From a virus: a stretch of 64,000 nucleotides of DNA. The notes beneath the pieces were generated by a model that was not told the DNA's origin, ran no database searches, and saw only the letters and a list, made by a program, of their open reading frames with translations. Positions 62,346 to 62,541 of this stretch are shown in pieces. The position numbers were made by a program, and so were the translations under genes. Within the stretch, counting starts at the first letter, position 1. Each line of letters begins with the position of its first letter. Location: IMG/VR virus record IMGVR_UViG_3300033143_002031, positions 32,001 through 96,000 of that record; one strand, 5' to 3'.

Positions 62346-62402
62346 GCACCTCCGGCCAGGGCGTATCGTGGCGCGGGACGCTTCATGCGTCCCTCGGAGG
62401 CG
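62346..62402 (-). ncRNA. unknown structured RNA, copy 1
   Basis: Three-way junction; 32-nt block identical to 62484-62515. Confidence 0.6.
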
Positions 62403-62477
62403 CGGCGGGCGACCTGAGAATCGAACTCAGCGGACAGCCGGTTTTGGAGACCAGCCCGCGTACCCTGCGCGTCACCC
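62403..62477 (-). tRNA. tRNA-Trp(CCA), reduced D-arm
   Basis: Loop CT-CCA-AA. Confidence 0.8.
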
Positions 62478-62482
62478 AAAGG

Positions 62483-62541
62483 ACACCTCCGGCCAGGGCG
62501 TATCGTGGCGCGGGAAACTCTCTCGTCTCCCTCGGAGATGC
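62483..62541 (-). ncRNA. unknown structured RNA, copy 2
   Basis: Same fold, compensatory changes in the variable hairpin. Confidence 0.6.

Follow-up and report, generated by a model that had tools for sequence, protein, structure and literature searches.

The DNA analysed here, referred to as the window, is a stretch of 64,000 nucleotides (nt) corresponding to bases 32001–96000 of the 184,744-bp IMG/VR virus record IMGVR_UViG_3300033143_002031, whose completeness is estimated at 88% and whose source is an uncultured T4-like phage of ~185 kb. The window contains a transfer RNA (tRNA) array of ~40 tRNA genes spanning 5.7 kb (57489–63197; ARAGORN and Rfam), which is the sole large minus-strand block, and within this array a tRNA-Trp gene is flanked on both sides by a small repeated element that folds as a three-way junction (3WJ; Table 1). 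Copy 1 of the element adjoins the 3′ end of tRNA-Trp with no gap and ends 3 nt (AUU) before tRNA-Asp, copy 2 lies 5 nt (CCUUU) upstream of tRNA-Trp, and the copies are 137–138 nt apart with this one tRNA between them. By our own call of open reading frames (ORFs), the record has 216 candidate protein genes, almost all of them on the + strand, and since the tRNA array lies on the − strand, transcription converges at the 3′ end of the array.

A duplicated three-way junction and its relatives

An earlier reading of this stretch, made from the letters only (the sequence-only reading), had proposed a duplicated element with an identical 32-nt block, a three-way junction on the array strand and compensatory changes in a variable hairpin, all of which our analysis bears out. 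Alignment of the two copies gives a shared block of 32 nt, and a 30-mer taken from it occurs exactly twice in the window (62349–62378 and 62486–62515, + coordinates) against none expected from 100 shuffles, with no third copy in the whole 185-kb record. On the tRNA (−) strand, the minimum free energy (MFE) structure of each copy is a three-way junction, in which a 9-bp closing stem is followed by a single unpaired A, by hairpin 1 (7 bp with a loop of 5–6 nt), by two unpaired nucleotides, and finally by hairpin 2, whose 4-bp GCCA/UGGC stem carries a 10-nt loop and is stacked without a linker on the closing stem. Copy 1 folds at −36.4 kcal/mol (z = −5.3; equalled by 0/200 shuffles) and copy 2 at −28.4 kcal/mol (z = −2.9; equalled by 2/200). 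Comparing the copies, two pairs of the variable hairpin are altered on both sides (C-G to G-U and G-C to A-U), and no intrinsic terminator is predicted at the element.

Table 1 Positions of the 3WJ element, its neighbours and related features. Positions without a prefix are those of the window; prefixed positions refer to the named contig or record.
Feature	Position	Strand	Basis or remark
Copy 1 of 3WJ RNA, 58 nt	62346–62403	−	Fold; covariance-model score 88.3 bits; alignments
Copy 1 closing stem P1, 5′ strand GCGCCUCCG	62395–62403	−	Inner CUCCG invariant in 6/6 variants
Copy 1 variable hairpin 1, 7-bp stem, AUGAA loop	62375–62393	−	Fold, alignment
Copy 1 hairpin 2, GCCA/UGGC stem, loop with family-invariant GAUACGCCC	62355–62372	−	
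Copy 1 closing stem P1, 3′ strand CGGAGGUGC	62346–62354	−	
Copy 2 of 3WJ RNA, 59 nt	62483–62541	−	Fold; covariance model; alignment
32-nt block identical between copies	62347–62378 and 62484–62515		Alignment
tRNA-Trp, CCA anticodon	62404–62477	−	ARAGORN; between both copies
tRNA-Asp	62269–62342	−	ARAGORN, Rfam
SRP-RNA-like hairpin (domain IV: GNRA loop, symmetric-loop motif)	62577–62604	−	Local RF00169 match; spacer after tRNA-Gln, upstream of copy 2
SRP-like hairpin	L043:11364–11391		28.5 bits; 1 nt from 3WJ
SRP-like match, full length	G004:C1:43126–43208	−	42 bits, above Rfam threshold; inside array
SRP-like hairpin	G009:C1:5709–5789	−	
Ro60 orthologue	L024:6214–7797	+	Inside tRNA array
Ro60 orthologue	G009:C1:1609–3339 = L013:560–2290	− (G009)	Inside tRNA array
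Ro60 orthologue	G004:C1:174575–175114		
HNH homing-type endonuclease gene	58735–59295	−	HNH_5, 1e-16; inside tRNA array, tRNA strand
TubZ-like tubulin	7650–8996		
tmRNA	29279–29687		
KhpA-like KH protein	genome 108867–109148		

A search of phage tRNA arrays for homologues, which the sequence-only reading had put forward as a check, was run and revealed a conserved element with covariation in related phages. Relatives were gathered by protein searches with TubZ and with DUF5662, whose gene sits just past the tRNA array; a covariance model (R1) was built from both window copies, and degenerate DNA patterns were also scanned in IMG/VR, the JGI metagenomes and the GTDB genomes. True matches score 48–88 bits with the covariance model, and homologues are present in five other phage lineages, all on phage contigs with syntenic tRNA arrays. 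Together they comprise six distinct sequences, namely the two window copies, L013 (= L035), L024, L033 (= L037, L048) and L043; the sequence in L039 and L032 is identical to copy 2. The L033 group also has a transfer-messenger RNA (tmRNA) whose tag is closely similar.

Every copy of the element is co-oriented with the tRNAs, and its position relative to tRNA-Trp differs between lineages: upstream in L013, L039 and L043, directly downstream and abutting in L033, and several kb away, in a tRNA-free stretch, in L024. The tRNA-Trp gene itself is of two kinds. In the window it is atypical: the D stem has 3 bp, the anticodon stem 6 bp and the connector a single nucleotide, CC is encoded without the A, and the gene is not listed under RF00005, the reported match being tRNA-Sec at 28.2 bits, below the threshold of that family. 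L013 has a tRNA-Trp of the same atypical type (78% identity), and L039, L033, L043 and L024 have a canonical, unrelated one; the gene has thus been swapped at the borders of the 3WJ element. Adjacent hairpins recur at these borders: a GAAA-tetraloop hairpin (62542–62567, −) abuts the 5′ end of copy 2, and tetraloop hairpins of other sequence likewise abut the element in L013, L039 and L024.

Two copies occur only in the phage of the window, its closest relative having one, and the second copy is a lineage-specific duplication or recombination product. Recombination inside tRNA-Trp between genomes with the element upstream and genomes with it downstream would yield two copies, as would a local duplication followed by homogenisation. 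L039 contains the copy-2 sequence, yet in this contig tRNA-Trp is followed after 5 nt by tRNA-Asp.

Beyond these lineages the searches returned little. Among 185,579 representative prokaryote genomes (GTDB), the pattern scan gave seven matches, all rejected by the covariance model as chance, and the JGI metagenome patterns gave 24, of which seven are real and the remainder lie in tRNA-free, apparently coding DNA. A blastn search of INPHARED with a 501-nt query gave no match to the 3WJ element; its sole match was one of 51 nt to Vibrio phage tRNA-Leu genes, within tRNA-Gln and the adjacent spacer. An exact 18-mer of hairpin 2 had no match in IMG/VR (the window's own record left out of the scan), and two more IMG/VR patterns with a relaxed 3′ half added nothing new. 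A weak R1 match in L023 was rejected as a lone hairpin within coding sequence. Within reach of these searches, the 3WJ element is a real orphan RNA family of one clade of uncultured T4-like phages.

Pair statistics were taken from an alignment of the six sequences (A3), which covers 22 pairs. Standard pairs occupy 93.8% of its cells, and seven of the 22 pairs have changed on both sides, a number reached by 1/500 shuffles, with register-shifted controls giving 0–2 such pairs. Three pairs of the closing stem and three of the seven in hairpin 1 have changed on both sides across the family, and RNAalifold, given no structure as input, returns the same junction. No variation is seen in the inner closing stem CUCCG/CGGAG, at the junction A or in GAUACGCCC of the hairpin-2 loop. 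Elsewhere the family tolerates change: hairpin-1 loops read AUGAA, GAGAGA, AUACA or AUAUA, and an additional G in four variants adds one G-C pair to hairpin 2 and shortens its loop to the six nucleotides AUACGC. The size across the family is 58–60 nt, with loops of 5–6 nt and 10–11 nt.

The element is also more conserved than its neighbours, with a mean pairwise identity of 81% against 60–71% for the syntenic tRNA-Gln, Asp, Phe and Pro of the same contigs. Copy 2 and L039 are identical at 59/59 positions and at the next 6 nt too, compared with 74% identity in the upstream spacer, 54% in tRNA-Trp and 62–90% in other tRNAs between the window and the surroundings in L039. This identity reflects either strong purifying selection or a recent exchange of the element as a unit, and either way marks it as a functional unit rather than a spacer. 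We regard the 3WJ as very probably a selected, structured element.

Comparison with known RNAs and neighbouring RNA modules

Searched against Rfam 15, the window, a 1.5-kb region and the 64-nt element alone gave no match to the 3WJ at gathering score and none of relevance at E ≤ 10. ARAGORN calls neither copy as a tRNA, and the 64-nt element alone has no RF00005 match at E ≤ 10. The sequence-only reading had recognised no RNA family in the element, and this Infernal-type check agrees with it, as do literature searches, which returned no description of the 3WJ RNA.

Several resemblances were considered and set aside. For self-cleaving ribozymes (hammerhead, twister, pistol, hatchet and the hepatitis delta virus (HDV)-like class), there is no Rfam match and the junction has just 3 unpaired nt; an HDV-like fold is, furthermore, unlike the 3WJ, whose 5′ end pairs with its 3′ end. 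Mimicry of an alanine acceptor would draw on G3.U70 with A73, a combination found in copy 1 and in no other variant. The one exact 10-mer complement of the loop, in a gene at genome position 118811, was discounted as a base-pairing target, ~0.35 such matches being expected by chance. Resemblances to the 16S 790 loop, 23S H89 and the tRNA-Trp D arm were dropped, the matches being too short to be meaningful.

A parallel in setting, though not in sequence or structure, is provided by ‘species 1’ and ‘species 2’ of T4 (rnaC and rnaD), which are likewise small non-tRNA RNAs on the tRNA strand, inside a T4-type tRNA operon and abutting tRNAs; in NC_000866, rnaD ends 1 nt from tRNA-Arg. Both T4 RNAs are stable, of unknown function and matured together with the tRNAs. 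They differ from the 3WJ in length (139 and 119 nt against 58–60 nt) and in that rnaC has a canonical T arm, the 3WJ having no T-loop. In the T4 tRNA cluster, covariance model R2 scores ≤4.1 bits, and the folds of rnaC and rnaD are different from the 3WJ.

The array also contains a hairpin resembling domain IV of signal recognition particle (SRP) RNA. Local RF00169 matches of 18–28 bits occur in the window and in L043, and such a hairpin lies just upstream of the 3WJ, in the same spacer, in four lineages. Further SRP-like hairpins on the tRNA strand are found in the arrays of the large phage contigs L070, L075, L078 and L079; in other phage contigs with SRP-like hairpins, neither R1 nor R2 gives a match. 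The likeness to small SRP RNA (4.5S RNA, RF00169) belongs to the adjoining hairpin, and the 3WJ itself is unmatched by RF00169, RF01854 and RF01857. Alu domains of SRP RNAs typically contain a UGUAAU turn, which on inspection the 3WJ lacks. The two modules are separated in L033 and G008 and so are independent of each other. Literature searches returned no description of phage SRP-like RNAs.

A further kind of module has the form GCCGAAUGC...GGGA.UACAU and was counted 12 times in L024 and five times in L013 in the array stretches examined. Two copies of this type coincide with matches to the YrlA model, at 57 and 36 bits, with other listed YrlA matches at 21–42 bits. In G009, one such module lies exactly at the position of the window's copy 1, and in the window phage none was found. 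These arrays thus hold several kinds of non-tRNA RNA module, some of which resemble host housekeeping RNAs.

Proposed role and rival explanations

Phage tRNA arrays are usually read as a supply of tRNAs against codon mismatch or anticodon nucleases. For the 3WJ, we tentatively favour a different reading, close to evenly poised but on the doubtful side, namely that it is a small structured RNA of an uncatalogued family, cut from a tRNA precursor and acting in trans as a ligand or decoy. The gene would be transcribed on the tRNA strand within a polycistronic tRNA precursor, and its product would be released by the same nucleases as process the tRNAs on either side. A cut by RNase P at the 5′ end of the next tRNA, 3–5 nt downstream, would set the 3′ end (for copy 1, the spacing points to tRNA-Asp), and 3′ maturation of the upstream tRNA or upstream hairpin may set the 5′ end. 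Release with the tRNAs, as supposed in the sequence-only reading, fits the 0–5-nt spacing to the flanking tRNAs, while the processing step itself is something we infer.

The 9-bp terminal stem would protect the resulting product of ~58–63 nt. Its working surface may consist of the inner five closing-stem pairs CUCCG/CGGAG, the junction A and the stacked hairpin 2 with GAUACGCCC, hairpin 1 presumably serving as a structural arm that is free in sequence. Through this surface the RNA would most likely serve in trans as ligand or decoy of an RNA-binding protein made by host or phage, and it would then be one of a set of array-encoded helper RNAs together with the tRNAs, the tmRNA, the SRP-RNA-like hairpin and, in relatives, the Y-RNA-like modules. 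Given the varied non-tRNA modules in these arrays, a ligand or decoy acting in trans is the most economical guess, and the protein sponge named by the sequence-only reading appears the most plausible class of function. Taken by itself, the proposal that the 3WJ is a trans-acting protein-binding RNA is possible, although we lean somewhat away from it, and a narrower version seems rather unlikely, in which the 3WJ is a decoy that copies the site where a housekeeping RNA of the host binds protein, much as the adjoining hairpin imitates domain IV of SRP RNA, and titrates a host factor of translation, RNA processing or defence. Were the decoy version true, these tRNA arrays would be ‘decoy-RNA islands’, whose modules of tRNA, tmRNA, SRP-like, Y-like and 3WJ type are exchanged between phages as cassettes.

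Several observations weigh against a trans-acting RNA made from the tRNA strand. The covariation comes from six variants of one clade with few events, and their kinship inflates the shuffle test; the distant big-array relatives G003, G004 and G005 are without the element by models R1 and R2; and no RNA-seq run with the 3WJ sequence was found among the runs listed, in which DNA runs share 5–8% of sampled words. No partner protein co-occurs with the element, the KhpA-like KH protein being absent from G008 and Ro60 not found in the window phage. Finally, the strand opposite the tRNAs folds 2.6–10 kcal/mol better in L013, L024, L033 and L043, and the family-wide count of seven G-U, seven A.C and one A.A cells has no G-U bias. 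The argument from G-U pairs in favour of the tRNA strand consequently holds for the window but fails for the family as a whole: both window copies fold better on the tRNA strand, whereas in the four contigs just named, two positions that read C.A or A.C on that strand are G-U on the other. We nevertheless consider that the tRNA strand is probably the functional one, because the orientation is constant in three independent positions and the element is packed flush against tRNAs, with short 3′ spacers that all end in U just before the G+1 of the next tRNA. Orientation and packing are context, and fall short of proof of the strand.

The strand data bear directly on the idea that the selected object is either an antisense RNA transcribed from the strand with the protein genes or a DNA-level hot spot of recombination or homing, by which tRNA cassettes are shuffled. 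In its favour are the better fold of the opposite strand in 4/6 variants, the lack of a G-U excess over A.C, the HNH endonuclease gene within the array, the exact swapping of two unrelated tRNA-Trp types at the 3WJ borders and the moved or duplicated element itself; with nearly all protein genes on the + strand, read-through could also conceivably give antisense transcripts of the array. This is nonetheless very unlikely, as both window copies fold better on the tRNA strand, orientation to the tRNAs is kept in all contexts, and helices that retain pairing through double changes are expected of RNA or extruded single-stranded DNA and not of a duplex protein site; on inspection, the element also lacks the hallmarks of attC sites or IS200/IS605 ends (GTTRRRY-type cores). 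A role confined to the tRNA precursor, in which the 3WJ would be a stable cis module that keeps neighbouring tRNAs from misfolding, halts exonucleases or places RNase P or RNase Z around tRNA-Trp and does nothing after excision, is unlikely, but has more to recommend it: the element touches tRNA-Trp in 5/6 lineages with gaps of 0–5 nt, the window's tRNA-Trp is structurally atypical with an incomplete encoded CCA, and other stable hairpins are packed directly upstream of it. Yet the 3WJ adjoins canonical and atypical tRNA-Trp alike and on either side, stands several kb from tRNA-Trp in the tRNA-free stretch of L024, and is missing between tRNA-Trp and tRNA-Asp at their junctions in L039 and L043, and a spacer role would not demand an invariant 9-nt loop sequence or conservation above that of tRNAs.

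A more specific partner is suggested by Ro60. Y RNA genes lie within 4 kb of the Ro60 gene on the same strand, phage Y RNAs are likewise encoded among tRNAs, Y RNAs and YrlA measure 80–130 nt, and the handle bound by Ro60 (Rsr) is GNCGAAN0-1G in bacteria and a bulged GGUCCGA helix in animals (Chen et al. 2014, PMC4201824). The 3WJ could accordingly be a miniature Y-RNA-like Ro60 ligand, with its terminal stem and the invariant 5′-strand CUCCGAG as the handle and its two hairpins as the effector. In L024 (record G008), a 528-amino-acid Ro60 orthologue (vWA_Ro60 3e-14; TROVE 0.002) shares the strand of the element and ends ~500 nt upstream of it, and in G009, which holds L013, a 50%-identical orthologue lies ~2.3 kb from it, also on the same strand and inside the array; both distances fit the 4-kb same-strand rule (PMC4201824), a likeness to Y RNAs (YrlA/YrlB, Yrn1; RF02553) that the 3WJ has in these two records only. 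As in Y RNAs, moreover, the 5′ and 3′ ends of the 3WJ form a terminal stem (9 bp), and CUCCGAG, on the 5′ strand of this end-to-end stem, has UCCGA in common with the vertebrate GGUCCGA. The evidence on the other side makes such a ligand quite unlikely. The window phage keeps two perfectly conserved copies, but no Ro60 was found in its record (estimated 88% complete) by vWA_Ro60, DUF2828 or tblastn with the relatives' protein, and G004 has a strong Ro60 (213 bits) and no 3WJ. The Ro60-bearing relatives already carry the other module, beginning GCCGAAUGC, which fits GNCGAAN0-1G, whereas CUCCGAG in the 3WJ is fully paired, offers no bulged helix and is a misfit to GNCGAA; the element has half the usual Y-RNA size, lacks a tRNA-like domain and gives no Y_RNA or YrlA match at E ≤ 10.

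That the 3WJ is what remains of a decayed or ‘armless’ tRNA, or else a pseudo-antitoxin repeat of the type III (ToxI-like) kind, with little or no present function of its own kind, is to our mind extremely unlikely. Its location among tRNAs and its topology, that of a tRNA minus the D arm with hairpin 2 stacked without a linker, recall the D-armless and ‘armless’ tRNAs of metazoan mitochondria, which also have three helices, the terminal stem and the last hairpin being stacked. However, the terminal stem of the 3WJ has 9 bp and not 7 bp, the hairpin-1 loops differ from one another and measure 5–6 nt with no 7-nt anticodon-type loop or conserved triplet, and there is no T-loop, no encoded CCA and no constant discriminator; the tRNA finders stay silent even at E ≤ 10 with the element alone, and a relic would not exceed functional tRNAs in conservation. 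The ‘mini tRNA mimic’ of the sequence-only reading is not supported by these observations, the element having no conserved anticodon-like loop either. Type III antitoxins of the ToxI kind are ~36-nt tandem repeats beside a toxin that cuts them; they and the phage pseudo-ToxI resemble the 3WJ, which is repeated in the window phage, as repeated small structured RNAs with the potential to let a phage neutralise a protein of its host. The 3WJ copies, by contrast, form no tandem array, since a tRNA separates them, just one copy is present in relatives, and no plausible toxin ORF adjoins the element, so that the suggestion of an antitoxin RNA finds no backing here either.

The 3WJ shows that one clade of large T4-like phages from the environment maintains in its tRNA array a non-tRNA RNA conserved above the tRNAs themselves, and this degree of conservation argues that selection acts on a function that has not been described. 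Together with the SRP-like hairpin and the Ro60 and Y-like modules of relatives, the 3WJ points to exchangeable RNA cassettes in host takeover by phages. At 58 nt, with a simple fold and a candidate working surface in an invariant loop, the RNA is amenable to synthesis, probing, pull-down and mutation.

The surrounding array and phage genome

The T4-like assignment of the source phage goes with the structural proteins of T4 type encoded in the record (Gp23 capsid, Gp20 portal, gp19 tail tube and gp25); further genes encode a family A DNA polymerase, RecA, peptide deformylase, a RelA/SpoT domain, PTH2 and Cpn10. A domain of Tad6, a Thoeris inhibitor, is also encoded in the record. The INPHARED collection holds no near relative of this phage.

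For the HNH gene of the array, segB offers a comparison from the T4 tRNA cluster, and the HNH gene may drive cassette exchange. Apart from the spacers described above, the array has tRNA-free gaps at 61861–62113, 58012–58279, 58696–59329, 60186–60347, 61198–61351 and 63020–63122. Repeats that resemble tRNAs but have non-canonical T loops (families D18 and D19, 58013–58426) occupy some of the gaps, and a tRNA at 61243–61310 is called by Rfam only. Two protein genes break up the array of the L033/L037 lineage, one of the DUF7873 family (9e-65; L037:1851–2696, −) and, on the opposite strand, one of radical-SAM/SPASM type (L037:2700–3674, +), from which it follows that the protein genes embedded in these arrays differ by lineage.

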